A DNA stretch of 64,000 bases from an uncultured Eubacteriales bacterium (GCA_964367815.1 CAYIYR010000001.1:5831-69830), one strand, 5' to 3'; counted from the first letter of the stretch, positions 3,164-51,595 are shown. Program-made: numbers and translations. Notes: generated by a model not told the origin, from the sequence alone.

Positions 3164-3169
3164 TATGAT

Positions 3170-13075: not shown

Positions 13076-13091
13076 AGATTAATAAATTAAC

Positions 13092-13122
13092 AAAAAAGAA
13101 GCTATTGCATTAGCTTCTTTTT
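13092..13122. terminator. bidirectional rho-independent terminator
   Basis: Hairpin AAGAAGCTA-TTGCAT-TAGCTTCTT is flanked by A6 on one side and T5 on the other. It sits between two convergent genes. Confidence 0.65.
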
Positions 13123-13607
13123 GGTATGGTGATATCTTTTCCTGTCTTCTGTTTCAATAAGCGAAGAATTCGATTGACTTGAGAAGGAAAGAGAACAGAA
13201 ATATATAAACGACGCGTTACTTCATCTTTCCCAACACAAACTAGAAATCTTTTCATTCCTTTTCGTCCCAAAGAACGACCGAGAGAATTTCCAAAGGTTT
13301 CTTCAATCGTATAACTCACGATATTGTCAAACTCGATGGTTGTCTCGTATTGAATGCGCTCGTTTCTAATTAAAACAAAATCCTTATTCATCCAAATTGA
13401 TTTCTCATCATAGAAAATTGGATAACTGAAGAAATTTCTAATAAGCCAATATAAGCAATAAGCTGCTATAAAAATAGCTAATCCATAGAAAATGGATCCT
13501 TGCTCAACAATATACTTCATGACAAAAAGAGCAACACTGCCAGCAAAAATAAGTAAATATAACCAAATAAGGAATCCTAAAGGATAAATTTTCTTCAAAA
13601 TAGACAC
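13110..13607 (-). CDS. membrane protein with a bacterial PH-like (bPH_2/YdbS-like) domain
   Basis: The product has two N-terminal TM helices followed by a roughly 90-aa soluble domain. That architecture is typical of the YdbS/YdbT family. Confidence 0.5.
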   Translation of the reverse strand: MSILKKIYPLGFLIWLYLLIFAGSVALFVMKYIVEQGSIFYGLAIFIAAYCLYWLIRNFFSYPIFYDEKSIWMNKDFVLIRNERIQYETTIEFDNIVSYTIEETFGNSLGRSLGRKGMKRFLVCVGKDEVTRRLYISVLFPSQVNRILRLLKQKTGKDITIPKRS

Positions 13608-13657
13608 GCTCCTTGCTATTAATAAATAATAACATGAAGTGCGTGTCTTTTCAAAAA

Positions 13658-25496: not shown

Positions 25497-25532
25497 AAAG
25501 CACAGAGGACTTAGTCTCCTTCTGTGCCATCT
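25497..25532 (-). terminator. rho-independent terminator after the yfhO-like gene
   Basis: Hairpin GCACAGAAGGAGAC-TAAG-TCCTCTGTGC on the minus strand includes the stop codon and is followed by TTTTTCTTGG. Confidence 0.6.
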
Positions 25533-28500
25533 TCTTCTTTCTTCTTTTTCTTATTAAAAACAATTTCGATTGTAACCGTTGCACCAATAAACAGGAACGC
25601 ACAAATTCCGCTCAACGCCAATCCTTTATTAATTCCTGGTGAAGTATATTGAAGGTGATATGTATTTTTTCCTTCATTCGCAATTAAGCCAATGAAGCCG
25701 CCATCCACTTTATAATACTTTGTATTAACGCCATTTACAGTTAATTTCCAGCCACTATCATAGGGTACTGATAAAACAACAAAGCGCTTATCACTATAAT
25801 TGGTTGTGAAATCAATCGTATTGTTGGTATGACTAATGTTTTCTAATGGAGATTGCTCAAGTTTTTGAAGGCGTGATAAGTAGGCGTTGTAGGGTTCTGA
25901 GAAAAAGCTCAATCCATATTTTGTAAGCAAGGATGGTTCAATATCATTTAATGCTTCAATCTCAATACGATCAACACTCTTACGAATATAAAATCCACGA
26001 GCAAATTTATGATCACCATTATGATCATAATAATTTACGCCATGATCATCCGAAGTTACCAATTCATCGCCGTGATAAAAACTAATCTTCAAGTTTGGTC
26101 CATAGTTGATTCCGCAGATTACATGGTAGCCACCACAAGTCTCGGCATCAGGACCGATGACATTACTTGCTGACAAGCGAACAATAACCTTGTCACCAGA
26201 ATCACTAGCTAAATCTGAATTCTCCGGCCAAGGCCCATAGAGCTTATAGCCATATTCTTTTCTAAAGTTTGCTTGTCCCTCGTTATAATTTACATCTTCT
26301 TGATTTTCAAATATATCACGAATATAGTCAGAACCTAATGTTCGAATTGAAGTAGAACCTATAGGGTATTCAACCGCTCTTTCTCTTGGCTGATAGAATA
26401 GATTATTGTTTTGAATATAAGTTCGATTGTAGGTAGTATAGTAACTATCAAGGAAGTTTAGATTCGAACCCATAAGACTTGTTATTTCTTCTTTATCGGT
26501 GGCTTGAACAATCGCACAATCAGTTAGTGCTGATTCATACATAAAATGATCAGACATATTATTTGAAACATCAAACGAAGTAGAATGGCCGCTGTTGCTT
26601 TGCGTGTAACAAAATGCTTGATCAAAAGCATAACCTAGTTCAACAAAGTGATCGTTCTTATACACTTTATAATGTTCTGTTTCTTTATATAAACTATAAC
26701 CCAAAGGAATGTTGGTATCTTCTTTTTCTAAAAGATAATACTTTACATTTAAGAATGCATCGAGATTATAACGCTTCTCATCGATTCCCATTGACCAGTT
26801 TCCACTAGTATAGGAAGAACGTGTCCAGTTTTGAATAAAGACATCCAATTCCGTATTGTATAGGGAGTGAAATGTTCCTAATCCTTTATAGCCCAACGAT
26901 AAAGAAAGATTGTTGGTGTTGCGATCAGCCATACTATCAAAAATGCGGTAAAATGAAGGGTCTTCTTTTTGCAATTCATTGACAATTTTTCTTTGCTCTC
27001 TAAATAAATTCTGCCCGCCATATAATTCCCAATAGTTTTGGATTCCTTGGCCTAATAATGCGATGTTTCCACAGACAATTAAGTCAATGGCAACCATAAT
27101 TAAAACAATGCGTTTTGTCGGTACTTTTTTACGTAGGATTCCAATTTCGTCGTGCGGCATTATGCGATACATAATTGTGAATATTACAATTTGGAAAACC
27201 ATCAAAATGCAGATGCCGGCAATGTGATACCAATCTAGACTCAATCTTTCATAATGAAGAGCGGCTCCCACGGATATTCCAATTAGTGTCAAACAAATGA
27301 TAAAACTCTTTATAAGGTCAGTTCGATCCATCTCTTTTAGTTTATCAATTGTTGGTGCGGTAGCAATAATCATGATCAAGACAACAAAGATTAGCCATCT
27401 TCCATACAGGACAGTACTGAAGCCACCGAATAGATAAAAATAGAATGGTATAAAAGGCATAAATATCATCCAAATTGTGCCAAAAAATTTCCAAAACTTT
27501 TTTGAACGGAAATTAAGTTTTATAGTTGGCCATAATAACAATAACATAGGAGTAGAGATATAAAGATTTGAAACATAATTATCATAGCCCGAATTGCTGA
27601 ACAAGGCATTTTCCCAACTGCTTGTTGCGGGAAATACCGTTTCTAAGATAATGTAAATAAACTTTTGCTCGCGATCAGATGCGCTGCCAGGATAGACAAA
27701 CACATAGCGAAGCAAGTTTTTAAAATTGTCATTGCTGAAGAATGCTTTGAAGGATTTTAAAGCCCCAAAGTTAAAGCCATCTGCGGTCTTTTCAGGTGAA
27801 ACAAAGAAAAACTTTAAGAAATCCATTAGTAGCGATGAGCCACTAACTCTTGATACGGTTGTTACGATATGAATGGCGGGGAAGATTACAAATGCGCACA
27901 TACCAACGCCAACGCAAGAATAAAATAAGCCTTGTAATATTATTGATAAATTATGTCCTTTATTCTTTTTGAAGCATTGGAAATAGCGAAACAAAGCATA
28001 CATCATTGTTGTAAATACAAAGGTAAAAAGAAAATAGTAATTAACCAAGCCACAGACTAACAAGGCAATGGCTAATGGCCAGCCTTTTCTCTTTTGAACA
28101 CAGTATTCTACACCAAGTAAGGTCAGAGGTAGAACCGCTAATACATCATAGAAGTGATTAAACCAGACATAATATAGTCCCCAACCACATAAACCATAGG
28201 CAATCGCACCCGTTAATGAGGCGGTGTCCGATAAGTGGAAGAATTTATTTAGTAGAATATAGACAAACAAACCACCACACGCTATCTTGATAGTCATCAT
28301 TATGAAGATTCCTTGGGGGACTAAAGAAACGGGTAATAAATAGATGGGTAAGGAGAAAGGACTAGTTAAGTAGTAAAAGGTATTACCAGCAAAATAGTTA
28401 TAGCCTAAATACCCTTCATAACTCCACATTTGGAATTCTCCAGTCTTGAAGAAATTCCAGAATGCATCATGTCCTTCAACATAGAAATGTAACTGTTGGA

Positions 28501-28666
28501 GACAATAATCGCCCGATACAGGGAGAGTTAAGCCGTTTGGTATGGCTTGAAAGGCAAAAAGAAAGAAAGTAATTGCCCAAATTATGCTAAAAACACGTAA
28601 GTATTTATGCTTTTTGTAGAAAGCACCAATTTTACTTAAAATTGTTCTTATTTTTTGCATAGCCAA
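25511..28666 (-). CDS. YfhO-family membrane glycosyltransferase-like protein, unusually long (1051 aa)
   Basis: About 13 N-terminal TM helices and a conserved YfhO-type N-terminus (TLPVSGDYCLQQLHFYVEGHDAFWNFFKTGEFQMWSYEGYLG) are followed by a large extracytoplasmic domain of roughly 500 aa and a final C-terminal TM helix. Confidence 0.75.
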   Translation of the reverse strand: MAMQKIRTILSKIGAFYKKHKYLRVFSIIWAITFFLFAFQAIPNGLTLPVSGDYCLQQLHFYVEGHDAFWNFFKTGEFQMWSYEGYLGYNYFAGNTFYYLTSPFSLPIYLLPVSLVPQGIFIMMTIKIACGGLFVYILLNKFFHLSDTASLTGAIAYGLCGWGLYYVWFNHFYDVLAVLPLTLLGVEYCVQKRKGWPLAIALLVCGLVNYYFLFTFVFTTMMYALFRYFQCFKKNKGHNLSIILQGLFYSCVGVGMCAFVIFPAIHIVTTVSRVSGSSLLMDFLKFFFVSPEKTADGFNFGALKSFKAFFSNDNFKNLLRYVFVYPGSASDREQKFIYIILETVFPATSSWENALFSNSGYDNYVSNLYISTPMLLLLWPTIKLNFRSKKFWKFFGTIWMIFMPFIPFYFYLFGGFSTVLYGRWLIFVVLIMIIATAPTIDKLKEMDRTDLIKSFIICLTLIGISVGAALHYERLSLDWYHIAGICILMVFQIVIFTIMYRIMPHDEIGILRKKVPTKRIVLIMVAIDLIVCGNIALLGQGIQNYWELYGGQNLFREQRKIVNELQKEDPSFYRIFDSMADRNTNNLSLSLGYKGLGTFHSLYNTELDVFIQNWTRSSYTSGNWSMGIDEKRYNLDAFLNVKYYLLEKEDTNIPLGYSLYKETEHYKVYKNDHFVELGYAFDQAFCYTQSNSGHSTSFDVSNNMSDHFMYESALTDCAIVQATDKEEITSLMGSNLNFLDSYYTTYNRTYIQNNNLFYQPRERAVEYPIGSTSIRTLGSDYIRDIFENQEDVNYNEGQANFRKEYGYKLYGPWPENSDLASDSGDKVIVRLSASNVIGPDAETCGGYHVICGINYGPNLKISFYHGDELVTSDDHGVNYYDHNGDHKFARGFYIRKSVDRIEIEALNDIEPSLLTKYGLSFFSEPYNAYLSRLQKLEQSPLENISHTNNTIDFTTNYSDKRFVVLSVPYDSGWKLTVNGVNTKYYKVDGGFIGLIANEGKNTYHLQYTSPGINKGLALSGICAFLFIGATVTIEIVFNKKKKKEEDGTEGD

Positions 28667-38545: not shown

Positions 38546-39850
38546 ATGAAAAAGAGAATAATTATTTTAGTTTGTTTTCTAGCTGTAATTCTTGTGCTAG
38601 GCTCTATTGATGGAATCCAAAGAATTGTTTCGGAATTTAATGATCCAGTTGAAGTCACAGAAAATGATAGGTATTCCAGCTATACTAATAGCAATCGTAC
38701 CTTAGTGGAAGTTGCGAATAATGCCAATTATTATGATGTTGTTGTTCTACAAAAAGATGAAAGTGATTTTTATATTCATCGGCCAATAGAAGGTGGTTTT
38801 GATAGCAAGATAATTATTGGAGAAACTTTCTCAAAGCTCAATTTATTGGGAATTTCTTATGTTAACAACTTAAGGGACGCCTCAATTGTTGGTACAAATA
38901 AAACATACTTAGTATATGGGGTGGGAGAAAAAGCAAACGGATCAGTATTTACAATCTGTCTTTGGTATTCTTCTGCTGGGGAATTAATATCAACATCTTA
39001 TATTCCGGATGTCTACGCATCATCAGTAATATTTGCAAGTAATGTCAATAGTGAAAGAACAATTCTACTATGTGGTCAGAAGAATAAATTACCTTATGCA
39101 GCGTTCTATAATTCTAATTTTGTCTTTCAAAAAGATTGGACAGCAGGGGCATCGTTTGATGGCATGAGTTGTATCAATGCGTATTTTTTAGATGCCGCTA
39201 GTTATTCGGGACAACAAGAAACTAGGTTTGTTGCAAAAATGGGTATAATAACGGATTTGTTGAGTAAATCCAAGTATGAAACTTATAAGTTATGCATGTT
39301 TTATCGCTTTGATGCCGCTGAAGTAAGCACTTGTGATTTCCACGAAATCTCAAACAATAATCACATAACTTACCATGTATCTAAATATGCTCAGCAATTA
39401 TTTTTGCGAATAGATGGAGATAAAGCATACATGCATATTGAAGCAAAGCAATTTGTCAACGATAATCGTCCGGCAACCAGCATGAGCTTTTCCGATAACA
39501 AAGAATATGTTTTCAATATTGTAACGAAATCTAATCGCGAGCCGTATCAAATATCAGTGAATTTTTTAAAAAAGAATGAAAGCAAAGAGAATAAACTATA
39601 TTTACCAAAGAGTTCAGCAAAATATGAAATTTTGTCTAGTGTTGGAGCCTATAAATATATTTTAGGATCATATGATGAAAAACAAGGGTATGCCGTGTTC
39701 CAATGGGTTGCCTTATCATCATCATTTGGAGAAACACCAGATTTTGGATATAGAACATATATTAAAATGAGCCTAGATGAATATACGGATAAGATCATAC
39801 CAATCTATCCGGGATTAGTAATAACCTCCAAGAAAATATACTCTTTCTAA
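38546..39850 (+). CDS. hypothetical exported or membrane-anchored protein (434 aa)
   Basis: An N-terminal signal/anchor helix is followed by a large domain with no motif I recognise. It is monocistronic between two terminators. Confidence 0.5.
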   Translation: MKKRIIILVCFLAVILVLGSIDGIQRIVSEFNDPVEVTENDRYSSYTNSNRTLVEVANNANYYDVVVLQKDESDFYIHRPIEGGFDSKIIIGETFSKLNLLGISYVNNLRDASIVGTNKTYLVYGVGEKANGSVFTICLWYSSAGELISTSYIPDVYASSVIFASNVNSERTILLCGQKNKLPYAAFYNSNFVFQKDWTAGASFDGMSCINAYFLDAASYSGQQETRFVAKMGIITDLLSKSKYETYKLCMFYRFDAAEVSTCDFHEISNNNHITYHVSKYAQQLFLRIDGDKAYMHIEAKQFVNDNRPATSMSFSDNKEYVFNIVTKSNREPYQISVNFLKKNESKENKLYLPKSSAKYEILSSVGAYKYILGSYDEKQGYAVFQWVALSSSFGETPDFGYRTYIKMSLDEYTDKIIPIYPGLVITSKKIYSF

Positions 39851-39985: not shown

Positions 39986-40030
39986 TAATGTGGTTGGTGA
40001 AAACCATTTTTTATCAAAGGAGGGGTTTTG

Positions 40031-42130
40031 ATGCCCATGATTATGGCAGGATTCTTTATGGAATTTACTGCAATTATTCTCGTCACAATAGTTGGCGTAT
40101 TAGGTGTTCTTTACACATTCTATTTGAAGAGTAAAATCAACAAAGAAAAAGTTGAAGATCCTAAGATGGCTGAAATTCAGTCATACATTAAAGAGGGAGC
40201 GATGGCATTCCTAAAACGCGAATATAAAACACTAGCAATTTTTGCTGCTGTTCTATTTATCGCCATTGGTTTTGGAATTTCATGGTGGACCGCAATCTGT
40301 TTCCTCTGTGGAGCAGGTCTATCTGGACTAGCAGGATTCTTAGGCATGAGAGCTGCGACAAGCGCTAATGCTAAAACAGCTGCTGCTGCCCAAAAATACG
40401 GCATGAGCAAGGCACTACAAGTTGCTTTCTCAGGCGGTTCTATTATGGGCCTATGCGTTGTTGGCTTAGGCTTAGGTGGATTAAGTTTAGTCTTTGTTAT
40501 TTTTGAATCAGCTATTGGAAATGTTTCCCAAGTCGCTGATATTATTACTGGTTTCGGCTTAGGCGCTTCTTCAATCGCTTTATTCAGCCGTGTCGGTGGT
40601 GGTATTTATACTAAGGCCGCTGATGTTGGTGCTGACTTAGTTGGTAAAGTAGAAGCCGGAATTCCTGAAGATGACCCACGTAACCCAGCCGTTATCGCTG
40701 ATAACGTTGGTGATAACGTTGGCGATGTCGCTGGTATGGGAGCCGATTTATTTGAGTCTTATGTTGGTGCAATTATTTCTGCAGTTTCATTGGGAGCCTT
40801 TATGACTGGTCTCCAAACTCAAAGTGTAATTTATCCAATGTTCTTATCTGGAATTGGTATTATTGCTGCGATTCTTGGCGGTCTATTTGTCAAGGGTGAC
40901 AAAAATCCTGCCAAAGCTTTAAAGAAAGGAACCTATGCTGCTTCTGCTATTGTTGTTGTTGCAGCGTTAGTCCTAAGTATTCTTTATTTCAATAACGATT
41001 GGTATAAAACCTTCTTCTCAGTTGTTATCGGCCTAGTAGTTGGAGTTATTATCGGTAGCATTACAGAGATCTTTACATCAGGCGATTATAAATTTGTTAA
41101 GAAGATTGCTGGACAGTCCGAAACTGGACCAGCCACAAACATTATCTCTGGTTTATCAACTGGTATGATGTCAACTTGTATTCCTGTCATTTTAATTAGC
41201 GTTGCTATTTTGGTGGCTTATTATGTTAGTGGTGGTAGTACCAATCCAACCTCAGGCGTTTATGGTATTGCTTTAGCTGCTGTTGGTATGCTATCAACAA
41301 CCGGTATTACTGTTGCTGTTGATGCTTATGGCCCAGTTGCTGACAATGCTGGCGGTATTGCTGAAATGGCTGGATTAGATGAGAGTGTTAGAGATATTAC
41401 TGACCAATTAGATGCAGTTGGAAATACAACTGCTGCTATGGGCAAGGGCTTTGCAATTGGTAGTGCTGCTTTAACTGCTTTAGCTTTATTTGTTACATTT
41501 ATCTTTAGTTTTAACGCCAAAACTGCTGTTGATATTACTACCCAATTAAATTTGGCATCACCTTCTGTAGTTGTTGGCTTATTAATTGGTGGTATGTTAC
41601 CATTCCTCTTCTCAGCCTTGACAATGGCAAGTGTTGGAAAAGCCGCTTTTGAAATGATTGAAGAAGTCAGATCACAATTTAAGAATGATGCTGGTATTAT
41701 GGCTGGAACAAGCAAACCAAATTATTCTAGATGTGTTGATATCTCAACCAAAGCCGCTCTAAAAGAAATGATTGTTCCTGGTGTCCTAGCTATTGTTGCT
41801 CCAATCGTTATTGGTGTCTTACTTGGATATCAAGGCTTAGCTGGTCTATTAGCTGGATCTTTAGTCACTGGTGTTTTGATGGCAATCTTTATGTCCAACG
41901 CCGGTGGTGCTTGGGATAATGCTAAGAAACTAATCGAATCAACTGGAAGAAAAGGAACTGAAGTTCATAAAGCTGCCGTTGTTGGTGATACTGTTGGTGA
42001 TCCATTCAAGGATACCTCCGGTCCATCTATCAACATTCTAATTAAGCTAATGACTATTGTTGCTGTTGTCTTCATTCCATTATTCTGTGCCATCTGTGGT
42101 GGTATGGGATTAATCGGATTTATTCAGTAA
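40031..42130 (+). CDS. hppA: membrane-bound Na+/K+-stimulated pyrophosphate-energized pump (V-type PPase)
   Basis: The product has about 16 TM helices and signature motifs ([57 protein letters not shown]). RBS GGAGGGG precedes the ATG at 40031. Confidence 0.9.
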
Positions 42131-42133
42131 AAT

Positions 42134-42160
42134 AAACCGGGGTTAAATCCCCGGTTTTAT
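42134..42160. terminator. bidirectional rho-independent terminator
   Basis: Hairpin AAACCGGGG-TTAAAT-CCCCGGTTT lies between convergent hppA and marR. Confidence 0.7.
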
Positions 42161-42178: not shown

Positions 42179-42604
42179 TTAGGCACTTTTTTTACTTTTC
42201 ATAACTGTTCTATTTTTTATTTTGTCTAAGCATTGATAGAATATTTCTTTTTCTTCGGTTGTTAAGTCTTGTGTTGCTTCTTCCGCCCACTTGTCAAAGA
42301 CATTTATGACATCATGCATCATTTTCATTCCATCTTCGGTTAAGGACAAAAGATTCTCTCGCCGGTTATTTGTATTCACAGTTCTTACTAATAAGCCTTG
42401 CTTTTCTAATTTACTAATCATTTTAGCAACAGTGGCTTTATCAATCGAATAAGCCCTGGAAATCTTATCTTGATTTGTGTTTTCGTGTAGATAAATAAAG
42501 GCGCAGACATTATGCTCAATTGAAGTTAAACCTAAATCTTTAAGCTCAACATAGGCATTGTTTTGACAAAATTTTGCGATTGCAACGAGATCTTGGATAA
42601 GCAT
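42179..42604 (-). CDS. MarR-family transcriptional regulator (paralog 1)
   Basis: The product has a winged HTH (DKATVAKMISKLEKQGLLVRTVNTNNRRENLLSLTEDG). It shares the MLIQDL N-terminus with paralog 2. Confidence 0.8.
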   Translation of the reverse strand: MLIQDLVAIAKFCQNNAYVELKDLGLTSIEHNVCAFIYLHENTNQDKISRAYSIDKATVAKMISKLEKQGLLVRTVNTNNRRENLLSLTEDGMKMMHDVINVFDKWAEEATQDLTTEEKEIFYQCLDKIKNRTVMKSKKSA

Positions 42605-42727
42605 AGTATCACTCCGTTTCTTCTAAATAATTTACCATAAATGTAGATTATAGTAAATGTTTTATATAATAAAAAGCCAAATAATCGTGATAATTAAGAA
42701 GTATATGGCATATATAGTAATAAAAAG

Positions 42728-42810
42728 TTGATAAAATCAACAGTTGGTTATTGACAACTATTTTTCTAAAGAGTATATTGAAATTGTCAACAGTTGAGAA
42801 AATCAACAAT
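42728..42810. promoter_or_regulatory. cluster of palindromic candidate MarR operator sites in the divergent promoter region
   Basis: The perfect palindrome TTGATAAAATCAA is at 42728-42740. AGTTGGTTATTGACAACT is an inverted repeat. TCAACAGTTGA is a palindrome. TTGAGAAAATCAA is a near-palindrome just before the marR2 RBS. Confidence 0.4.
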
Positions 42811-42823
42811 AATGAGGTAAAAT

Positions 42824-43231
42824 ATGCTAATACAAGATTTGATTGTTATCGCCAAAAGTGCGCAACGAGCAGCAAATGAGAAGGTAAAGAGCCTTGGTTT
42901 TACTACGCGCGAAAATACAATATGTAATTATTTATATTTACACCAAGAAGCGAGCCAAGATAAAATTGCTAAAACATTGCTAATTGATAAAGCCACTGTC
43001 GCAAAGATTTTAAAGAAATTAGAAGATCAAAAGATAATTGAACGAAAAGTCAATCCAAACAATCGTAGACAAAATATCATTACTCTTTCCGATGGCGGTT
43101 CGGCCGTAATTAAAGAAATGATTGGATTTTATGATGCTTGGACTGATTTTGTTATGGATGAATTAAGTGAAGAAGAAAAAGCGCAGTTCTACTCCTATTT
43201 GAAAAAAATTAAGCATAAAGCGATGTCATAG
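42824..43231 (+). CDS. MarR-family transcriptional regulator (paralog 2), first gene of the operon
   Basis: The winged HTH is DKATVAKILKKLEDQKIIERKVNPNNRRQNIITLSDGG. It is about 40-45% identical to paralog 1 by eye. Confidence 0.8.
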   Translation: MLIQDLIVIAKSAQRAANEKVKSLGFTTRENTICNYLYLHQEASQDKIAKTLLIDKATVAKILKKLEDQKIIERKVNPNNRRQNIITLSDGGSAVIKEMIGFYDAWTDFVMDELSEEEKAQFYSYLKKIKHKAMS

Positions 43232-43264
43232 GCATCCATTAAAAATAATAGAAAGGGTGATGGT

Positions 43265-43978
43265 ATGGAGAGTTTAATCGTCTTTAGCGAAGTAAATGTC
43301 AGTTGGGGAATGGCATTGGTAGATTTTATCCCTGTAGTTTTTTTCTCGGCAGGTATGGGTTATTTATTAAAAATGACTTATCGCAAGCTAAATCCATTTT
43401 GGTATTCACTGCTTAGTGGTGGGGCATTCCTAGGGTTTTTCGCGGGCTTATCAAAGTGTACGTGGAAATTGTTGTATGCAGCGGGTTTTGATTTTGCACC
43501 ATTTAATGTTTCATTTGCTGTCTATCAAACCGTTGGCTTCCTATTAATTGCTATTGCCTTAATTGCGGTTGTCGTATTCGATAAGAAAACGACCGCTATG
43601 CCGAAAGTAAAGAGCATTGAATTGCCAGTATCGATTCTTGCTTTATTACCGCTAGTGTTAGCAACAGTAAGATCAGTTACTAAACCAGGATTCCTTTGGT
43701 ATATTTGCATGGGAATTTTCACAAGTGTTTATCTCGTTTGTATGGCAATCTTGACCATCAGAAGAAAGATGGTTAAAGAGACAATATCTTTAGTAATTTC
43801 GTTTGTTTGCATGTGGACCATGGCTGGATTGAAATCTCAATTTGAATCTGGCGGGACCTTTGAGAGAATGAATTGGATTGCTCAGATTGTCAATAGTATT
43901 ACTCAACTTGCAATGGCGTATCCTGCTTTTATGCTTTGTAAAAAAGAAATACTAGTCAATAAAGCAGTAGAACAATAA
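43265..43978 (+). CDS. hypothetical polytopic membrane protein (237 aa)
   Basis: The product has 6-7 TM helices and no motif I recognise. Confidence 0.5.
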   Translation: MESLIVFSEVNVSWGMALVDFIPVVFFSAGMGYLLKMTYRKLNPFWYSLLSGGAFLGFFAGLSKCTWKLLYAAGFDFAPFNVSFAVYQTVGFLLIAIALIAVVVFDKKTTAMPKVKSIELPVSILALLPLVLATVRSVTKPGFLWYICMGIFTSVYLVCMAILTIRRKMVKETISLVISFVCMWTMAGLKSQFESGGTFERMNWIAQIVNSITQLAMAYPAFMLCKKEILVNKAVEQ

Positions 43979-44002
43979 TAACCACAAAGAGGAGGAGATA
44001 AA

Positions 44003-45082
44003 ATGAGTGGAATTGTCGCATATGGTGTCAAGATTCCTTTTAGAAGAATAGAATCAGCGACCATATTAGAAGTTTGGCGTAATGTTTCCGAAGAAATATT
44101 AACCAAATTAAACCTTAAGGAACGGGCTGTTACGGGTCCAGATGAAGACCCTATTACCTTAGGTGCCAACGCAGCCAATAGTTGTTTAAAACAAAGCAAC
44201 TTAAAATTAGATCAAGTAGATGGATTAATCTTTGCTAGTCAAACCAATCCTTATGCAACCAAATCAAGCGCTACGGTTTTACAAGATATCTTGGGTTTAA
44301 AGCACGATATCTTTACCACCGATGTTCAACAGGCTTCACGCAGTGGATTCGATGCGATTTTCATCGCTAAAAATCTAGTCGATAGTGGTAGATGCAAGAA
44401 TGTTTTAGTTATCGCCAGTGATTGTCTGAATCAATTCATTTCACCGGGTCATGTTTATGAATATGCCGGTAGTGCCGGTGCCGTAGCCTTAATCATCAGC
44501 AGAGAAAATGTTATCGCTGAAATTAACGATATGCAATTTGCATCAGAAGATCGCGCCAACTGGTATCGTTTAAATACCGAAAGATATATTCAACTGGGCT
44601 GTGGCTTTGTTGGCTATATCAGTAGCTGGGGATTAATGGAATCTGTTAAAGATAGTTGGACTAAATATAAAGAAGTTAATGGCGTAACTGCCGATGATTT
44701 CATGCACTTTGCCTTACCACAAGGTAATGTTGTTCAATCATTTATGACGACCGGAGTATTGAACTGCGATGTCTACCAAGCATTACCATACGTTATCAGT
44801 GAATCAGTTGGTGATTTAGGCTGTGGATTAGTGCTTGCATCAATGTGTAACATTTTTGATCTCATTGATGAGGGTGGACAAACCATCTGTGCTGTTGGCT
44901 ATGGTTGGGGTGATGGGTCCTGTATTATGGGCCTAACAACTACTGATTTAATCGGACAAGTTGCTGATAAACCAGTAGTTATGACACAGATAGAGAAGAA
45001 AGAATACATCAGTTACGGCAAAGCCGTGAAATATGAAAAGAAATTAGACCGCAATATGAAGGGTCTATCCAGTTATTATTAG
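44003..45082 (+). CDS. archaeal-type HMG-CoA synthase-like / KAS III-like condensing-enzyme family protein
   Basis: GIVAYGVKIPFRRIESATILEVW...PDEDPITLGANAA...NPYATKSSATV parallels the archaeal HMGCS N-terminus (GIVGYG..IP.YRI...DEDT.T.A.EAA). The His of FMHFALPQGN is conserved. RBS GAGGAGGAG lies upstream. Confidence 0.75.
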   Translation: MSGIVAYGVKIPFRRIESATILEVWRNVSEEILTKLNLKERAVTGPDEDPITLGANAANSCLKQSNLKLDQVDGLIFASQTNPYATKSSATVLQDILGLKHDIFTTDVQQASRSGFDAIFIAKNLVDSGRCKNVLVIASDCLNQFISPGHVYEYAGSAGAVALIISRENVIAEINDMQFASEDRANWYRLNTERYIQLGCGFVGYISSWGLMESVKDSWTKYKEVNGVTADDFMHFALPQGNVVQSFMTTGVLNCDVYQALPYVISESVGDLGCGLVLASMCNIFDLIDEGGQTICAVGYGWGDGSCIMGLTTTDLIGQVADKPVVMTQIEKKEYISYGKAVKYEKKLDRNMKGLSSYY

Positions 45083-45094
45083 GAGGCAAAGAAA

Positions 45095-46300
45095 ATGGAT
45101 AAAAAAATTAGAAAAGTCGTTGTTTATTCCTTTGCAATCACTGATAGAGGATATCCTTACGCGACTCCCTGGAGAAAAATCGTTGTTGATGCTTTTACAA
45201 AAGCTTTAGATCAAACAACATTAAAAGTTGAAGATATTCAATGTGGATCTGTTGGATATAACGAAAGAGGCGTTAGTGAAGCGGCCCTTGGTACGCAAGT
45301 TGCTGATGCTCTAGGTCTACCATTGTCTTGTAGTATGACTCCAGTCTCCCATGCTTGTGCAGGTGGTGGTATGGCGTTATACAATGTTTGGAATTATATT
45401 GCTTCTGGCATGTATGATGTTGGGCTAGTAATGAGTTTCCAAGTCGGTGATAGCTTCGACAACATGGAAGCTATGAACCCCATCGGTAATCACTCTGATT
45501 ATGACTATACTTTCGGATTTTCACATGTAGAATACAGTTTCTTAAGAGATAAATGGTATCGTGAAAAATATGGCTATGATGTAATTCCCGCGGCTACTTG
45601 GGCGCAAGTCTGTCATGAATATGCTAGAAAAGTTCCTGGTAGTGTTGAATATGGAAAAGATATGCCAGTTTGGGAAGATCTAGCTGCTGAAACCGCCGAA
45701 GGCGAAAGAGCAAGAAGTGCTGCTGCTAGAGGTGCTACAGCCACAGCAACCATTCTTGTTTCTGAAGAGAAAGCAAAAGAATTGGGTATCAAAGATCCAG
45801 TTACTTGCTATGTTGCTTATGCTTTCAGACCTCCATATATTGGAAATCATATGTTCTATGAAGGCTGTCCTGGTTACGAGAATTATGACTTAGCAAATCA
45901 ACCGGGTATGATTAATGCCGCGCAACAAGTTTATAAGATTGCTGGCATTACCCCAAAGGATATTGATGTTGCTGAAGTTCATGATCTCAGCGGTTGGGAA
46001 GGCATCTACTCCCTAGAGGGATTAGGAATCTGTGAAATCGGTGAAGGTGGAAAATTTGTTGCCGAAGGAAATACAAGAGTCGGTGGAAAATGTCCAACTT
46101 GTACCCATGGTGGTGGAATTGCTTATGGACATACTTCTGTCGGTAGTGATTTCCAGATTAACTTCTTTGAAGCCTGCCTCCAATTACAAGGCAAAGCTGA
46201 AGGAAGACAAGTTGAAGGAGCAAAGATTGGTGTTGCCCAAGCTTATGGAACCCATCACTCCTATGATGTCGTATCAGTATTGAAGAAGGGAGAGATTTAG
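45095..46300 (+). CDS. thiolase (SCP-x/archaeal-type acetyl-CoA C-acetyltransferase-like)
   Basis: The product has a thiolase fold with the nucleophile Cys in SHACAGGG and the C-terminal GGGIAYGHTSVGSD segment. Confidence 0.8.
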   Translation: MDKKIRKVVVYSFAITDRGYPYATPWRKIVVDAFTKALDQTTLKVEDIQCGSVGYNERGVSEAALGTQVADALGLPLSCSMTPVSHACAGGGMALYNVWNYIASGMYDVGLVMSFQVGDSFDNMEAMNPIGNHSDYDYTFGFSHVEYSFLRDKWYREKYGYDVIPAATWAQVCHEYARKVPGSVEYGKDMPVWEDLAAETAEGERARSAAARGATATATILVSEEKAKELGIKDPVTCYVAYAFRPPYIGNHMFYEGCPGYENYDLANQPGMINAAQQVYKIAGITPKDIDVAEVHDLSGWEGIYSLEGLGICEIGEGGKFVAEGNTRVGGKCPTCTHGGGIAYGHTSVGSDFQINFFEACLQLQGKAEGRQVEGAKIGVAQAYGTHHSYDVVSVLKKGEI

Positions 46301-46302
46301 TT

Positions 46303-46737
46303 ATGGCTGACAATTTATTTGGCTCAATCGCAAGAGTAGAAACTCATAATACCGTAAGAGCGTATAAAGAAAAAGATGGACGTTTCCGGATTATTGGTTC
46401 TAAGTGTCCAGATTGTGGATCAATTTGGTATCCAAGAAGATTTATTTGTCCAAAATGTCACGGTCGTAATCTTCAACCATATGAGTGTGCACAAGAAGGC
46501 GAAGTAGTAACTTCTTGGGTCGATATGATTGGTTTCCCAGTAATTGGCTTTGAAGATATTGATGATCGCTGTGTTGCAATGATCAAATTGGATGATGGCA
46601 TCCATGTCATGGGCGAGATTATCGATGTTAGAAAAGAAGTTCCAAATGGGACAAGAGTAAAAGCTGTTATTAGACAATTAAAAAGAGACGATACTGGTAA
46701 CCTAATGTATGGTTATAAATTCGAAGTCGTTGAGTAG
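46303..46737 (+). CDS. DUF35 zinc-ribbon/OB-fold protein (thiolase-HMGCS scaffold subunit type)
   Basis: A rubredoxin-like zinc ribbon (CPDCGSIWYPRRFICPKCHG) is followed by an OB-fold. It starts 2 nt after the thiolase stop. Confidence 0.8.
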   Translation: MADNLFGSIARVETHNTVRAYKEKDGRFRIIGSKCPDCGSIWYPRRFICPKCHGRNLQPYECAQEGEVVTSWVDMIGFPVIGFEDIDDRCVAMIKLDDGIHVMGEIIDVRKEVPNGTRVKAVIRQLKRDDTGNLMYGYKFEVVE

Positions 46738-46781
46738 AACTCGAATTTACAATATAGAAATAATTAAAGGAGGACATTATT

Positions 46782-47126
46782 ATGTCAAAAATTAGTGAAG
46801 TTATTTACAATCTACCAAATTTATTCGTTAAAGAAAAAGCCAAGGGATGGGACAGATGCTTAGTATTCGAGTTAACTGGAGAAGAAGCCAGCAAATACAC
46901 TGCAATTATTAAAGGTCAAGTTCTAACAATTCATGATGGCGAACCAACAGAAGAAGAAAACGCAATGAAGAAATTAGTTGTCTTTGGTGACAGCCAATAT
47001 GTTGTTCAAATGTTCACCGGTGAAGTTCCACCAATGAAATTAGTCAACGCCAAATTAATCCAAATGAAGGGTGGACTAATCGATTCTATGTCCTTCAGCC
47101 GTATTTGGAATATTCCCAAGAAATAA
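46782..47126 (+). CDS. SCP2 (sterol carrier protein 2-like) lipid-binding domain protein
   Basis: The 114-aa product has SCP2-fold length and pattern (LVFELTG...KLVVFGDSQYVVQMFTGEVPPMKL...KLIQMKGG). Confidence 0.65.
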   Translation: MSKISEVIYNLPNLFVKEKAKGWDRCLVFELTGEEASKYTAIIKGQVLTIHDGEPTEEENAMKKLVVFGDSQYVVQMFTGEVPPMKLVNAKLIQMKGGLIDSMSFSRIWNIPKK

Positions 47127-47168
47127 GGTACATTTTACGTTTATTACTAACTAAAAGGAGGTTAGCAA

Positions 47169-48218
47169 ATGTTAAAATATCGTGAGGAACAAAATCATCG
47201 TTGGGCCCATAATCTAAAAGCAGCCCGTGAATATTTTAATTCCGATTTAGAAAAATTCTATAACGGAGATATTCCTGCAGAGTTCCCCTATCCAGGCATC
47301 AAAATCTTGGGTGCCTTCTGGGTAGCCGAAAACATGGAGATGCAAGAAAGACTAGCTATTCACAAAGATGTTCTTGATTTAAAAGAACACTATAAAGAAT
47401 ATGAAGTGTTTTCAGAAGAGTTCTATCGTTGGTTTGTGGAAGACTTTGTTGAAATGTCTAATCGTTTTGACATTTATTCTAAAGAGGACTTAGACCAATT
47501 AGTCAGAATATCTCAACAAGAAGTCAAGATTCCTGAAGATTGGCAAGAACAAATTGAAAGTTTAGAAGCCAGATCAGAAGAAATGCTTTCCAGTAAGCAA
47601 AAAGATGATGAACTACTAAGAGATTGGTTCTTCTATTGTGGAAGATTTATTCTCTCATATGCTCAGAACTTGATCAGACAAGGAGTTATTACTGCCTTGT
47701 TTGTAAAATACTTCGGCGTTGATGCTTTGAAGAAAGCAATTGAACCGACCATTGATTACTTTGGTTGGAACATTAATAGAGTTTTCTTTAATGTTGCGAT
47801 GCCAGCCACTGGTTTCCAAGACCTAGGTGACATTGTTGCCTTAGGGGCTTATGGAATGTTGGCCGACCAAGCAGTTAGTCCAAGTAGTGAAGAAGTCAAA
47901 GATGGAGTCACCTACAAACGTAGTTATTTAGATACTTGCCAATTATATGGCTTTATCGACTCGGTAGCTGATTTCCTAAATCAACCTAAGGGTTGTACTT
48001 CTGATGCTTATTGTCGCTTCTGCGTTGGCCATGGTGAGAAAACAATGCACTTTGTTATTCCACCAGATAGAACAGTCGATTATTCATTAGAGACTGGTCT
48101 CGGCTACGGTGGTAAAAGATGTACATTCTTATTAAAGACCGTTGAGGGTGAAGATGATGAGAGATGTGCAAATGCTGAAGCCAAAATATTTGGCGATGAA
48201 GAATTAACTTATAAATAA
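47169..48218 (+). CDS. hypothetical protein with C-terminal Cys motifs ([16 protein letters not shown] ... GGKRCTFLL ... ERCANAE)
   Basis: I recognise no family for this 349-aa soluble protein. RBS AAAGGAGG lies upstream. Confidence 0.5.
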
Positions 48219-48232
48219 AGGAGAACACAATT

Positions 48233-48988
48233 ATGAGATTTCAAGATAGAGTTGTAATTGTTACTGGTAGCGCCTATGGAATTGGCAGAGCCACCGCTTT
48301 AGCGTTTGCTAAAGAAGGTGCAAAACTAGTTATCACTGATTACAATGCCGAAAAGTTAGAGCAGACAGGTAAATTATTAGAAGAATTAGGCACTGAGTAT
48401 ATTTCAAGAGCCTTTGATATTCGTGATGGCGAGAAAATTGATGAAATGATGAGTGCTGCCATGGAAAAATGGGGACACATCGATGTTATGGTTAACAACG
48501 CTGGTGTTGGTCAATTCAATCCTTTCCCAACCACCTCAATTGATGAATGGGATACAATTATGGGAATCAACGCTAAAGCCGTTTATATGTGCTGCCGTGC
48601 AGTAGTTCCTTACATGATGGATGCTGGAAAGGGTGCTATTGTTAACATCACCAGTATCATGGGTGAATTTGCTGCCATTGCTCAATCTATTTATAACACC
48701 TCCAAGGGTGCTGCCAAGATGCTAACACAAGCTATAGCCAAAGATTTAGGTGAAACAGGTATTAGATGTAATGCTGTTGCTCCAGGAATGGTTCAAACAG
48801 GTTTAACTGAAAACATGTTTGCTGATGATGGTCAGAGACAATGGTTTGAGGAAAGAATTCCATTAGGAAGAGTCGCCCAACCAGATGAACTAGCCAAAGC
48901 AGTATTATTCCTCGCTAGCGATGATGCCAGTTATATTACCGGTGCAACTTTAAGAGTTGATGGTGGTATGACCTGCGCTATGAACTAA
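48233..48988 (+). CDS. SDR-family oxidoreductase (3-oxoacyl reductase FabG-like)
   Basis: The product has [13 protein letters not shown] (NAD(P) binding), NNAG, and the catalytic YNTSK. Confidence 0.85.
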
Positions 48989-48989
48989 C

Positions 48990-49796
48990 ATGAAGAAAGA
49001 AAAGAAATCAAAAAAAGTTTTAACACCTGAAGAAAAAGCTGCTAAAAAAGCAAAAATGAAGGAAACCGCTTGGCTCGGATTTAAAGATGGTATTATTCCA
49101 TTCTTTATTCAGATGGGAATCCTGGTAGTTGTCATTCTAGAATTCGTTTTTGTCATTGCTAACAAGAACATCCCCAATGTTTCTAATGTTGCGGATCGAA
49201 TTGTTGGTGGCGAAGTAATTAATGATCCTAACATACTACGCCTAATTTATATGATTCTATGTGTGCCAGCTGTTATCGGATTGCTATGGTGGTCTTCCAA
49301 AGTTGAAAGTAAAACCAAACAATTCTGGATTTCACTTGTTGCAGGAATTGTTGCTTGGCAGTGTATAGGTGAATGTAGTTTCCATTTTGGACTCTATGTC
49401 AATGGCACTTTTGAGTTCTTCCCCCAAATTGAAGGACCACAAGGCCTATTCCTACTTGTCTTTATTAGTCCAGTTCTGTTCTATGCCAATAAGAAGAAAG
49501 CATTCCCTTGGTTTGTTCAAATCTTCTTACTGTCATTTATGTGTAACTGGTTAGGACACTTTGTTATTGAAGGTATTGCCCCAATGTGGCCAACCACATT
49601 GCGTTATCATAATCCAGCAAAATGGCCAAAAATTGTAGGTATCCTAGCTGGTCTCCATGGTAGCTTAATGCTTTTATACAAAATTATCTTCAAAGCCAAA
49701 ACCAAAGAAGAAAGACTCGTTTTATCACTATTACTTTATACGTTTGTTGGAGTATTAGTAGAGGGTGTCTTTGGCGTTGGCGGGTCGTTAGGATAA
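48990..49796 (+). CDS. hypothetical membrane protein (268 aa)
   Basis: A Lys-rich N-terminus is followed by about 7 TM helices. It starts 1 nt after the SDR stop. Confidence 0.5.
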   Translation: MKKEKKSKKVLTPEEKAAKKAKMKETAWLGFKDGIIPFFIQMGILVVVILEFVFVIANKNIPNVSNVADRIVGGEVINDPNILRLIYMILCVPAVIGLLWWSSKVESKTKQFWISLVAGIVAWQCIGECSFHFGLYVNGTFEFFPQIEGPQGLFLLVFISPVLFYANKKKAFPWFVQIFLLSFMCNWLGHFVIEGIAPMWPTTLRYHNPAKWPKIVGILAGLHGSLMLLYKIIFKAKTKEERLVLSLLLYTFVGVLVEGVFGVGGSLG

Positions 49797-49799
49797 ACT

Positions 49800-49827
49800 A
49801 AACCCCCACTCAGGGGGTTTTATACTT
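49800..49827 (+). terminator. probable terminator ending the 9-gene operon
   Basis: Hairpin AAACCCCC-ACTCA-GGGGGTTT is followed by a short T/A run. Confidence 0.5.
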
Positions 49828-50547
49828 ATGAAAAAACACACAAAACTTAAAATAACTCTAATAGTTATCTTAACGGTAGTTCTAGCAATTGTAGTTGGCG
49901 GAACCATTTATGTCAAAGATTATTATCATAGTGATGAGAGCGTTGCAGCAATACTAAATAATGAGAATGTCCAAATCGAAAAAAATTATATTACTTTTGG
50001 TGATGAGAAAGCAGAGACAGGTATCATATTTTATCCTGGTGGTAAAGTAGAACATACTGCTTATGCACCACTGATGAATCAATTGGCAGACAAGGGATGT
50101 TTTGTTGTTCTAGTAAAGATGCCTTTTAACCTTGCCGTATTTGATATAGATGCCGCCGATGAAATTAGAGAGACCTTTGGCCAAAAGCAATGGTATATAG
50201 GTGGGCATTCGTTAGGCGGTGCAATGGCAAATAGCAACCTAGGAAAGCAACCCAAAAGTTATCAGGGACTAATATTACTTGGTGCTTATCTAACTGATGA
50301 TTTAAGCGCATATGACGGAATTGTTGTTTCCATTTATGGAAGTGAAGATCAAGTTTTAAACAAAGAAAAATATGATGAAGGACTTGAATATAAACCTTCA
50401 AAGTATTATGAATTAGTTCTTAGTGGCGGCAATCATTGTCAATTTGGAAACTATGGTTTTCAAAAAGGTGATGGAATAGCTTCTATCAGCGCATCTAATC
50501 AACAACAACAAACGAGTGATTTTATTTGGAGCAAAATAAGTACCTAA
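49828..50547 (+). CDS. alpha/beta hydrolase with N-terminal membrane anchor
   Basis: A TM helix is followed by the nucleophile elbow GHSLGG. Confidence 0.7.
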   Translation: MKKHTKLKITLIVILTVVLAIVVGGTIYVKDYYHSDESVAAILNNENVQIEKNYITFGDEKAETGIIFYPGGKVEHTAYAPLMNQLADKGCFVVLVKMPFNLAVFDIDAADEIRETFGQKQWYIGGHSLGGAMANSNLGKQPKSYQGLILLGAYLTDDLSAYDGIVVSIYGSEDQVLNKEKYDEGLEYKPSKYYELVLSGGNHCQFGNYGFQKGDGIASISASNQQQQTSDFIWSKIST

Positions 50548-51560: not shown

Positions 51561-51595
51561 AAAAGATTGGATTTATACTCCAATCTTTTTTGTTA
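51561..51595. terminator. bidirectional rho-independent terminator
   Basis: Hairpin AAAAGATTGGA-TTTATAC-TCCAATCTTTTTT. Confidence 0.65.

Follow-up and report, generated by a model that had tools for sequence, protein, structure and literature searches.

A rare but strongly conserved bacterial operon joins a PhlACB-like trio with a predicted hybrid active site to an SCP2 carrier, a short-chain dehydrogenase and an orphan protein

We analysed a stretch of 64,000 nucleotides (nt) from an uncultured Eubacteriales bacterium (GCA_964367815.1 CAYIYR010000001.1:5831-69830; hereafter the window), and in it an operon at positions 42179-49827. This operon encodes a protein resembling 3-hydroxy-3-methylglutaryl-coenzyme A (HMG-CoA) synthase (subunit A), a thiolase-fold protein (C) and a DUF35 protein (B), accompanied by an SCP2-fold carrier, a short-chain dehydrogenase/reductase (SDR) and an orphan protein of 349 amino acids (aa). 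Its similarities place the trio with the bacterial C-acyltransferase complexes PhlACB and MucABC rather than with the archaeal-type complex. Its thiolase-like subunit carries a hybrid active site, and the six genes stay linked in distant lineages. What appears to be undescribed is this active site, the constant grouping of the trio with SCP2, an NAD-type SDR and an orphan zinc-motif protein into a set of six genes, and two orphan protein families. The operon is rare yet strongly conserved, with a narrow host range in anaerobic bacteria. Its genes, in window coordinates, are the following.

42179-42604, minus strand: marR1, divergent MarR-family regulator, paralogue of marR2 (Pfam MarR, E 1.6e-10)
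42824-43231, plus strand: marR2, MarR-family regulator, first gene of the plus-strand operon (Pfam MarR, E 2e-10)
43265-43978, plus strand: memA, polytopic membrane protein of 237 aa, accessory part
44003-45082, plus strand: A subunit, HMG-CoA synthase-like and PhlA-like (NCBIfam PRK04262, E 1e-65)
45095-46300, plus strand: C subunit, SCP2-type thiolase fold (Thiolase_C_1, E 5e-34)
46303-46737, plus strand: B subunit, DUF35 zinc ribbon plus oligonucleotide/oligosaccharide-binding (OB) fold, PhlB/MucC-like (Pfam zf-ChsH2 and OB_ChsH2_C)
46782-47126, plus strand: SCP2-fold carrier of lipids or hydrophobic ligands, 114 aa (membership via orthologues)
47169-48218, plus strand: orphan protein of 349 aa, no family match
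48233-48988, plus strand: SDR, classical oxidoreductase (adh_short_C2, E 3e-72)
48990-49796, plus strand: memB, membrane protein of 268 aa from an orphan family, accessory part
49828-50547, plus strand: Abhydrolase_5 alpha/beta-hydrolase (PF12695, E 2e-48)

Reading of open reading frames places the nine plus-strand genes from marR2 to memB exactly where the original prediction, made from the sequence by a model, had put them. The gaps between them measure 33, 24, 12, 2, 44, 42, 14 and 1 nt, within the claimed range of 1-44 nt. The gene list holds too, apart from its omission of the divergent marR1 at the start of the interval. Domain searches bear out the calls of HMG-CoA synthase-like, thiolase, DUF35 and SDR proteins directly, and that of SCP2 through orthologues.

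The identity of the trio was judged from the scores of each subunit against all solved structures (Protein Data Bank, PDB). Subunit A reaches 191 bits and 34% identity with PhlA, as compared with 130-141 bits and 29% with archaeal HMG-CoA synthases (HMGS). Subunit C reaches 157 bits and 32% identity with PhlC, 116-124 bits with the acetoacetyl-CoA thiolase (ACAT) 7yvy, 106-112 with MucB and 88 with an archaeal ACAT. Subunit B scores 86-87 bits with PhlB and MucC alike and 62 bits with archaeal DUF35. It is because all three score best against PhlA, PhlC and PhlB (B being tied with MucC) that we place the trio next to PhlACB. The family top-ranked for A is PRK04262, the archaeal-type HMG-CoA synthase, at 222 bits, which is under its cut-off of 244. 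The trio is indeed homologous to the archaeal complex of thiolase, HMGS and DUF35, and to that extent the label "archaeal-type" of the original prediction was apt, but the closest characterised relatives are bacterial, namely PhlACB and SmaATase. The gene order with the HMGS-like gene first, which had been taken as unusual, is simply that of phlA-phlC-phlB.

These two bacterial complexes are the characterised descendants of the archaeal one, and both are Friedel-Crafts C-acetyltransferases (PMC6392133, PMC12960953). PhlACB acts in the synthesis of 2,4-diacetylphloroglucinol in Pseudomonas (PMC6392133), and SmaATase, of the MucABC type, in reutericyclin synthesis in an oral Streptococcus (PMC12960953). 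In both, the thiolase-like subunit alone is catalytic and works by way of an acetylated cysteine; it no longer has the HDxF histidine, and its HMGS-like partner no longer has the E-C-H-N tetrad (PMC6392133, PMC12960953). In the window, too, the three subunits are encoded side by side (A resembling HMGS, C a thiolase, B a DUF35 protein), and A is dead.

The evidence for a dead A lies in its active-site positions. Where the HMGS of Methanothermococcus has E82, C114, H238 and N270, subunit A has Q80, S112, A237 and D271, and among its orthologues the first position varies between E, G, C and Q and the second between G, A, H and S. In the archaeal complex, no HMG-CoA is made once all four of these residues are mutated (PMC12960953). 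Since all four catalytic residues are replaced, HMG-CoA synthesis is excluded, and A is almost certainly a non-catalytic scaffold. The original prediction was right to set the operon apart from the housekeeping entry step of the mevalonate pathway, whereas its description of A as a condensing enzyme has to be abandoned. In B, the zinc-ribbon cysteines are Cys35, Cys38, Cys49 and Cys52.

Subunit C is the only predicted active site of the trio, and its residues are Cys88, Asp137, His144, His296 (in HDLS) and His346 (in GH). Cys88 and the GH histidine are invariant in the C family and its sister clades. Asp137 and His144 (PhlC numbering) belong to a YD(Y/F)..G.(S/T)H motif that is common to PhlC and MucB and not found in archaeal ACATs. 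The acyl-carrying cysteine and the Asp-His relay of PhlACB and MucABC are therefore both present, and neither varies across the family or its sister clades. His296, on the other hand, is also invariant, within HDL(S/T), at a place where PhlC (Tyr298) and MucB have tyrosine; the loss of the HDxF histidine that marks these acyltransferases has not taken place here. In comparison with archaeal thiolases, C keeps Cys88, His346 and the pair His296-Asp297, in a motif that reads HDL(S/T) and lacks the Phe. Three further positions differ from PhlC: Asn56 stands for His56, Asn123 for Tyr124, and Gln116 (other residues in the sister clades) for the Glu or Asp found in PhlC, MucB (Asp115) and ACATs. Judged from these residues, the active site of C is in a third, hybrid state, being neither that of a standard thiolase (no acid/base Cys, no Phe) nor that of a described acyltransferase.

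Next, we consider conservation of the operon. The same gene set occurs in more than ten independent loci with differing flanks, far more than chance would allow. In the clade of the window (loci L002-L011), every readable locus from L002 to L009, with hosts that include metagenome-assembled genomes (MAGs) of Bacillota, has the same genes in the same order amid unrelated flanks. Sister clades (L012/13, L014, L016 and L018), with C subunits 40-47% identical, have the six genes in another order. The arrangements that depart from that of the window are given below, where 349-aa denotes a homologue of the orphan protein, MFS a transporter of the major facilitator superfamily and RND one of the resistance-nodulation-division family.

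L010 (Symbiobacterium): TetR-A-C-B-MFS-SCP2-349-aa-memB-like-SDR
L011 (Fermentithermobacillaceae): TetR-A-C-B-SCP2-349-aa-SDR
L012/13: 349-aa-SCP2-A-C-B-memA-like-444aa-SDR
L014: two 349-aa paralogues, SDR-SCP2-A-C-B
L016: TetR and RND efflux pump, 349-aa-SDR-SCP2, then contig end
L018: 349-aa-SDR-SCP2-MFS-A-C-B-Abhydrolase_5

In every locus of three clades with readable flanks, the 349-aa protein, SCP2, A, C, B and SDR are found together in shuffled order; SCP2 is present in every complete locus of these clades that has the 349-aa protein. The copies of the latter are homologous between clades (hhalign probability 100, E 2e-49 to 3e-40). That the set stays linked through such reshuffling is strong evidence for one function of all six genes. 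The original prediction had proposed a single conserved unit, and had allowed that the SCP2, SDR and hypothetical genes might prove not to be conserved with the trio; the survey of neighbourhoods decides for the former. The linkage of the 349-aa protein with the trio may fail for the most distant relatives, as a remote homologue (P0172, locus L019) does not lie beside a trio. A further locus, Asgard-like (L015; GCA_976602785.1, 7544-11864), has A, C, B and SDR only: the 21-kb stretch read there contains neither SCP2 nor the 349-aa protein, and a Gtr1/RagA GTPase gene lies nearby. Trio and SDR are found in Asgard MAGs (Hodarchaeota/Hodarchaeales; L015, P0048 and P0142) at 43-45% identity to the window proteins, which suggests transfer of the A-C-B/SDR core between domains.

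What varies between loci is the ligand-responsive regulator, the transporters and membrane proteins (memA, memB, MFS, RND or a pair of the ATP-binding cassette, ABC, type) and the Abhydrolase_5 esterase. The position of marR2 is taken elsewhere by a TetR, a helix-turn-helix (HTH)-cupin, an AraC-PocR or a two-component regulator. Transporters beside or inside the module comprise an RND set with outer-membrane factor (L016), MFS proteins (L010 and L018) and an ABC pair (L002). As the regulators differ between loci and transporters adjoin, the wiring of the module seems to be inducible and of xenobiotic style. Neither polyketide synthase (PKS) nor nonribosomal peptide synthetase (NRPS) genes are present in the window locus or in any homologous locus read; the scaffold-forming genes that accompany PhlACB and MucABC thus have no counterpart beside the trio. 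Nor is any CoA ligase or transferase, hydratase or dehydratase, acyl-CoA dehydrogenase or enoyl reductase conserved in any locus read.

Some loci have features of their own. In L012, the gene between the memA-like gene and the SDR gene (12399-13733, plus strand) encodes a soluble protein of 444 aa that is faintly similar to ferrochelatase (hemH, E 8e-4) and is specific to that clade. L014 (5541-7761, plus strand) has tandem 349-aa paralogues of 365 and 321 aa in one operon, the shorter one without the first ~30 residues of the family. In L016 (1513-7891, plus strand), where the host is a diderm, the module directly follows, on the same strand, a TetR gene and genes for all three parts of an RND efflux system, namely outer-membrane factor, membrane-fusion protein and RND pump. 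The module of L004 (1-5293) lies beside ispG (GcpE) of the methylerythritol phosphate (MEP) pathway and a block of acetyl-CoA carboxylase and acyl carrier protein genes.

Among the partner proteins, the window copy of SCP2 scores 16.0 bits (E 0.016) against PF02036, below the gathering score of 21.3. Six orthologues, 50-71% identical to it, score 21.4-49.5 bits (E down to 6e-13), above that threshold, and family membership of the window copy follows by orthology. The SDR shows the glycine motif TGxxxGxG (T11-G18), the tetrad N88, S141, Y154 and K158, and Asp36 at the end of strand beta-2; Asp36 and the catalytic residues are kept in all 11 aligned loci. In SDRs, an acidic residue at the end of beta-2 goes with preference for nicotinamide adenine dinucleotide, NAD(H), and Asp36 indicates such preference here. 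The PDB neighbours of this SDR are generic, FabG, butanediol dehydrogenase, BbsD and 7alpha-hydroxysteroid dehydrogenase (7alpha-HSDH) all scoring about 160-174 bits. Family and PDB searches gave no specific signal for a phloroglucinol reductase, as phloroglucinol catabolism would have it.

The 349-aa protein is, by a confident structure model, composed of an N-terminal helical bundle and a C-terminal alpha/beta domain. The best fold matches of its C-terminal half are the V4R domains of phenol sensors and palmitate-binding Bet3, and the model points to a remote V4R/Bet3-like ligand-binding fold. Cys257, Cys282, Cys285, His288 and Cys318 are invariant in an alignment of 17 family sequences (motif AYCxxCVGHG), and this Cys/His set makes a zinc site possible; the L012 copy, from a sister clade, has Asp instead of Cys285. 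We take the spacing C257-x24-C282-x2-C285 to resemble the Cys-x22-Glu-x2-Cys zinc site of MopR. The family is rare, with 17 clusters at 90% identity among 5.8 billion proteins, 34 representatives found by profile search among 1.84 billion, and occurrence in 5 of 185,579 species representatives.

The membrane proteins are less constant. memA has no Pfam or NCBIfam match; its orthologues (43-47% identity) are found in L002, L004, L007 and L008, with a paralogue in L002 and a homologue of 28% identity in L012 from a sister clade; L010 and L011 lack it. The family of memB consists of 18 clusters among 5.8e9 proteins, none with a Pfam domain, and has a distant homologue in L010. Predicted helical segments contain its conserved polar motifs WQxxGExxxHFG, NWxxH and EER, and an AlphaFold2 model (mean predicted local distance difference test score, pLDDT, 87.8) has about seven helices and short beta-hairpins. 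A Foldseek search of the PDB gave no related fold (best E 1.2). A weak Pfam match of the window copy to Mpo1-like proteins (E 0.0013) was not reproduced in the two orthologues scanned, and this assignment was rejected.

How might these parts act together? Our preferred reading, held tentatively and somewhat short of probable, is that the module carries out a substrate-inducible, CoA-linked C-C acyl transfer or cleavage on a hydrophobic carbonyl compound, along with one redox step, and does so in a catabolic or detoxifying direction. We infer complex formation, the type and direction of the reaction, the nature of the substrate and the roles of the carriers, as follows. A and B would serve as scaffolds in a complex assembled like PpATase (PhlACB), with C alone catalytic and Cys88 holding the acyl group as a thioester. 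By Claisen or retro-Claisen (retro-Friedel-Crafts-like) chemistry, this group would pass from CoA to a carbon centre of the substrate or back again; as substrate we envisage a beta-dicarbonyl, an enolic ketone or an acyl-phenol that is not itself a CoA ester. His296 and His346 might stabilise the thioester or an enolate, Asp137 and His144 might relay protons, and in the direction of cleavage the yield would be an acyl-CoA. The NAD-type SDR would interconvert a neighbouring hydroxyl and keto group, thereby making or removing the beta-dicarbonyl. The greasy substrate or product would be bound by SCP2 and the V4R/Bet3-like zinc-motif protein, its transport and pre-processing would fall to the membrane proteins or transporters and to the anchored esterase, and MarR (elsewhere TetR, AraC and others) would turn the operon on when the compound is present.

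Several observations stand behind this proposal. A hydrophobic ligand is suggested because SCP2 is present and the fold matches of the 349-aa protein are a phenol-sensor domain and a palmitate-binding protein. PpATase and SmaATase take acetyl groups from acetyl-CoA via an acetyl-Cys intermediate (PMC12960953), which makes the reverse transfer to CoA chemically plausible, and C keeps the HDxF histidine, as do thiolytically active thiolases. The catabolic or detoxifying direction is favoured because there is no biosynthetic partner, the regulators are of xenobiotic-sensing types, the SDR is of NAD type and the process would need only CoA and NAD. A sharper version of the proposal can be formulated: the hybrid thiolase/PhlC complex would, as a new enzymatic strategy, thiolytically cleave the ring-acyl or beta-dicarbonyl bond of a free hydrophobic beta-diketone or acyl-phenol, with CoA as the direct acceptor of the acyl group. 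Such a "reverse Friedel-Crafts" reaction would conserve energy, and a hitherto unknown family of zinc-binding V4R/Bet3-like proteins would, together with SCP2, deliver the substrate. So specific a scheme is, in our estimate, improbable as it stands.

A number of points weigh against our proposal. Nothing links the module to a particular class of compounds, and downstream catabolic genes are not conserved among the loci. The retained HDxF histidine would suit an ordinary thiolase of CoA esters equally well, the preference for NAD leaves the direction unfixed in an anaerobe, and the adjoining transporters are also suited to exporting a product made by the cell. Moreover, C lacks the general-base and acceptor residues of PhlACB and MucABC (Glu116/Asp115, His56 and Tyr124). 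PhlC His56 is essential and binds the substrate, phloroglucinol (PMC6392133); because it is replaced by Asn, and the proposed general base Glu116 by Gln or other residues, the described Friedel-Crafts mechanism is not conserved.

The strongest competitor, possible but rather doubtful, is a true thiolase paired with a 3-hydroxyacyl-CoA dehydrogenase, both acting on CoA esters and shortening or elongating long or branched acyl-CoAs presented by SCP2. The module would then correspond, in split bacterial form, to peroxisomal SCPx/MFE-2 or to the DUF35-organised archaeal fatty-acid synthase. SCP2 is the natural partner of SCP2-type thiolases (SCPx), the SDR is an invariable member of the module with BbsD among its PDB neighbours, and C keeps Cys88, the GH histidine and the HDxF histidine. 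The last of these is essential for thiolysis of acetoacetyl-CoA both in the "intermediate" PfACAT/HMGS-DUF35 and in BbsAB (PMC12960953). Furthermore, a Sulfolobus DUF35 protein organises a ketothiolase and a ketoacyl-CoA reductase (bioRxiv 10.1101/2024.07.05.601840). Some TetR regulators are nearest FadR or KstR, and those of L010 and L011 have Bacillus FadR as best full-length match; these scores fall far below the family cut-offs and are weak hints only. What speaks against a conventional thiolase is the motif HDL(S/T), which has neither the acid/base Cys of HDCF nor the Phe, the loss of the ancestral Glu116, the presence of Asp137/His144 as in the acyltransferases PhlC and MucB and not in ACATs, and the overall similarity, highest to PhlACB. 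The enzymes listed above that would activate acyl chains and complete their cycle are not conserved in any locus read.

An unlikely alternative is that the trio tailors a natural product, as a PhlACB/MucABC-type C-acyltransferase on a hydrophobic enolic or phenolic scaffold made elsewhere or imported. The SDR would then reduce the product, which SCP2 and the 349-aa protein would chaperone on its way to export as a bioactive or membrane compound. The phl cluster has TetR regulators, phlF and phlH, of which those in some of our loci are reminiscent; efflux-type transporters adjoin (RND in L016, and by their family type MFS in L010 and L018); A is dead, Asp137/His144 are conserved, and the nearest characterised relatives are precisely the two known C-acetyltransferases. 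Yet no type III PKS, NRPS, PKS or other scaffold-forming gene lies in or near any locus, the essential His56 of PhlC is absent, Tyr298 has given way to the thiolase histidine, and the proposed general base Glu116/Asp115 is not conserved.

Far less probable is a steroid or bile-acid side-chain aldolase of Ltp2-ChsH2 or Sal-Shy type, in which a DUF35-bound thiolase-like protein acts as retro-aldolase on hydroxyacyl-CoA side chains. The pairing of DUF35 with an SCP2-type thiolase fold, the ChsH2-derived Pfam names, and SCP2 next to an SDR with 7alpha-HSDH among its neighbours give the operon a superficially steroid-like look. Ltp2 and Sal, however, begin their motif with Tyr (YDHF/YDCY) and lack the nucleophile (Gly89 in CtSal); the window family has HDL(S/T) in its place and an invariant Cys88. 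None of the loci has a MaoC hydratase, a CoA ligase or any other gene of steroid catabolism, and Ltp2 and ChsH2 score poorly in the PDB comparison (44 bits; E 0.1). The link to sterols or bile acids suggested in the original prediction thus finds no specific support.

Finally, a split mevalonate entry step, with channelling between thiolase and HMG-CoA synthase as in archaea, is effectively refuted and was rejected on the lost tetrad of A: homology of the trio to the archaeal complex, the family match of A and the miaA gene in the window, which implies a need for dimethylallyl diphosphate, favour it, but A stays under the family cut-off, its four replacements (Q/S/A/D for E82/C114/H238/N270) vary between orthologues, the equivalent archaeal quadruple mutant makes no HMG-CoA (PMC12960953), ispG beside the L004 module means that this host has a non-mevalonate route, and presence in only 5 of 185,579 species representatives ill fits a housekeeping role. 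Among the annotated genes of the window, none belongs to the mevalonate or MEP pathway.

The surroundings of the operon include the following further features.

40028-42130, upstream neighbour: H+-pyrophosphatase gene, preceding the hairpin at 42134-42157
42134-42157, both strands: bidirectional terminator-like hairpin with a 9-bp stem, 6 G-C pairs and T-runs on both strands
42727-42807, between marR1 and marR2: putative operator/promoter region with palindromes and a sigma-70-like promoter
49800-49820, plus strand: G+C-rich hairpin AAACCCCC-ACTCA-GGGGGTTT with a T-rich tail behind

marR1 and marR2 are arranged head to head, and both proteins start with MLIQDL. The nearest named family for both is BilQ, a bilirubin-utilisation regulator, with scores of 69 bits for marR1 (best NCBIfam match) and 60 bits for marR2, well under the cut-off of 125; as a clue to the substrate this resemblance is a weak hint only. 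Between the two genes, two copies of the palindrome GTTGA(T/G)AAAATCAAC(AGTTG) flank the sigma-70-like promoter TTGACA-17-TATATT at 42751-42779. The 10-mer TCAACAGTTG occurs exactly twice in the window, both times in this intergenic region, and the palindromes are likely operators.

The upstream boundary of the locus is the hairpin at 42134-42157, between the H+-pyrophosphatase gene and marR1. The terminator placed by the original prediction after the last gene exists as a hairpin (49800-49820), but its T-tract on the plus strand is imperfect (TTTTATACTT when the stem is trimmed) and by the criteria of the terminator scan it qualifies only on the minus strand. Its role may be that of a leaky terminator or of an element that stabilises the transcript. 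Eight nt past it, outside the interval first proposed, starts the Abhydrolase_5 gene. Its protein has an N-terminal membrane anchor or signal and the nucleophile motif GHSLGG. Homologues adjoin the module in L002/L003 (42% identity), L007 (35%) and L018 (35%, directly after B). Because the gene recurs beside the module in other genomes, it is probably an accessory member and the unit probably extends past 49827, where it had been thought to end. Terminator-like hairpins at 42134-42157 and at 51561-51589 (after a polysaccharide deacetylase gene) bracket the region, so that the transcription unit could span marR2 to 51425.

Elsewhere in the window, a T-box leader (3168-3369, plus strand; 127 bits) lies directly upstream of serS (3407-4699); such leaders are a typical tRNA-sensing regulation of Bacillota. 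With the genes for pyruvate:ferredoxin oxidoreductase, formate-tetrahydrofolate ligase and the H+-pyrophosphatase, it makes for an anaerobic, low-G+C, Bacillota-like context. A 434-aa protein with an N-terminal hydrophobic segment and no Pfam or NCBIfam match is encoded at 38546-39850 (plus strand), in the stretch of lowest G+C content (0.32). At 25511-28666 (minus strand), a 1051-aa protein has a weak N-terminal match to the streptococcal glycosyltransferases PgfM1/PgfM2 (73 bits, cut-off 1500).

Enzymes that make or break the C-C bonds of aryl ketones or beta-dicarbonyls with CoA alone are rare and sought as biocatalysts, and for complexes of this type a reaction is known for PhlACB and SmaATase only. 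The operon defines a coherent sub-class with an active site between the "thiolase" and "acyltransferase" states. Its fixed set of partners offers handles for finding the substrate, through ligands that co-purify with the carriers and through inducers of the MarR or TetR repressors. A likely annotation error is also removed, since by homology A would be named HMG-CoA synthase and the trio could be mistaken for a mevalonate pathway. The families of the 349-aa protein and memB are both without a Pfam domain, and memB is without a relative of solved structure as well. As to novelty, our literature search found no description of this gene combination, as the original prediction had supposed; the class of trios without PKS or NRPS genes had already been flagged in a 2026 study, however, 1,001 of 1,030 bacterial HMGS/ACAT/DUF35 clusters forming a large uncharacterised class of this kind (PMC12960953). 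The A subunit described here may not be caught by the PF08541 probe used for mining in that work.

Comparison with known systems places the module among several relatives. PhlACB (PpATase of Pseudomonas protegens; PDB 5M3K/5MG5, 9SKH) has the same order A-C-B, with subunits 32-34% identical to the window proteins, and is the best PDB match for A and C and an equal best, with MucC, for B. Both have an A without HMGS catalytic residues, a C with Cys88, the GH histidine, Asp137 and His144, and a B with a Cys4 zinc ribbon and OB fold. They differ in C, where His56, Tyr298, Glu116 and Tyr124 of PhlC have become Asn, His, Gln and Asn, and in gene company: the window locus has no phlD (type III PKS), phlE or phlG, and the phl cluster has no SCP2, SDR or orphan protein, which are the fixed partners here. 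SmaATase (PDB 9VBO/9VBT; PMC12960953) shares a Bacillota host, tripartite build, a dead A and a C with Cys and Asp-His relay. Its B counterpart MucC scores 87 bits, but A and C are only 26% and 29% identical, MucB has no HDxF histidine and the muc cluster has an NRPS-PKS line, neither of which is true of the window module.

The archaeal complex is homologous in all subunits (A 130, C 88, B 62 bits) and shares the nucleophilic Cys, the GH histidine and the His-Asp of HDxF; the window module differs from it in the complete loss of the HMGS tetrad, in gene order and in having no mevalonate context. Archaeal-type ACATs such as 7yvy have an EWE..F motif where the window thiolase has the PhlC-type YDY..SH. 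BbsAB/BbsCD of benzylsuccinate beta-oxidation and the Sulfolobus fatty-acid synthase of ketothiolase, DUF35, ketoacyl-CoA reductase and dehydratase also unite DUF35, an SCP2-type thiolase and an SDR, and BbsA, BbsB and BbsD are among the weaker matches of the window proteins. These systems have no HMGS-like third subunit, and work with CoA-transferase or dehydratase/reductase partners that the window module lacks. The V4R/Bet3/H-NOX fold, known from the phenol sensors PoxR, MopR and DmpR and from Bet3 of TRAPP, is what the C-terminal half of the 349-aa protein resembles.

The nearest functional analogy for the hybrid state, drawn from its description rather than from sequence, is the "evolutionary intermediate" PfACAT/HMGS-DUF35 of Pseudomonas fluorescens, which also has a dead HMGS, a thiolase with the HDxF histidine and no PKS or NRPS neighbours (PMC12960953). 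That enzyme thiolyses acetoacetyl-CoA and does not condense it (PMC12960953). Its HMGS and DUF35 parts are fused and it is not reported to have SCP2, SDR or orphan partners, whereas the window family has additionally acquired the PhlC-type Asp137 and His144.

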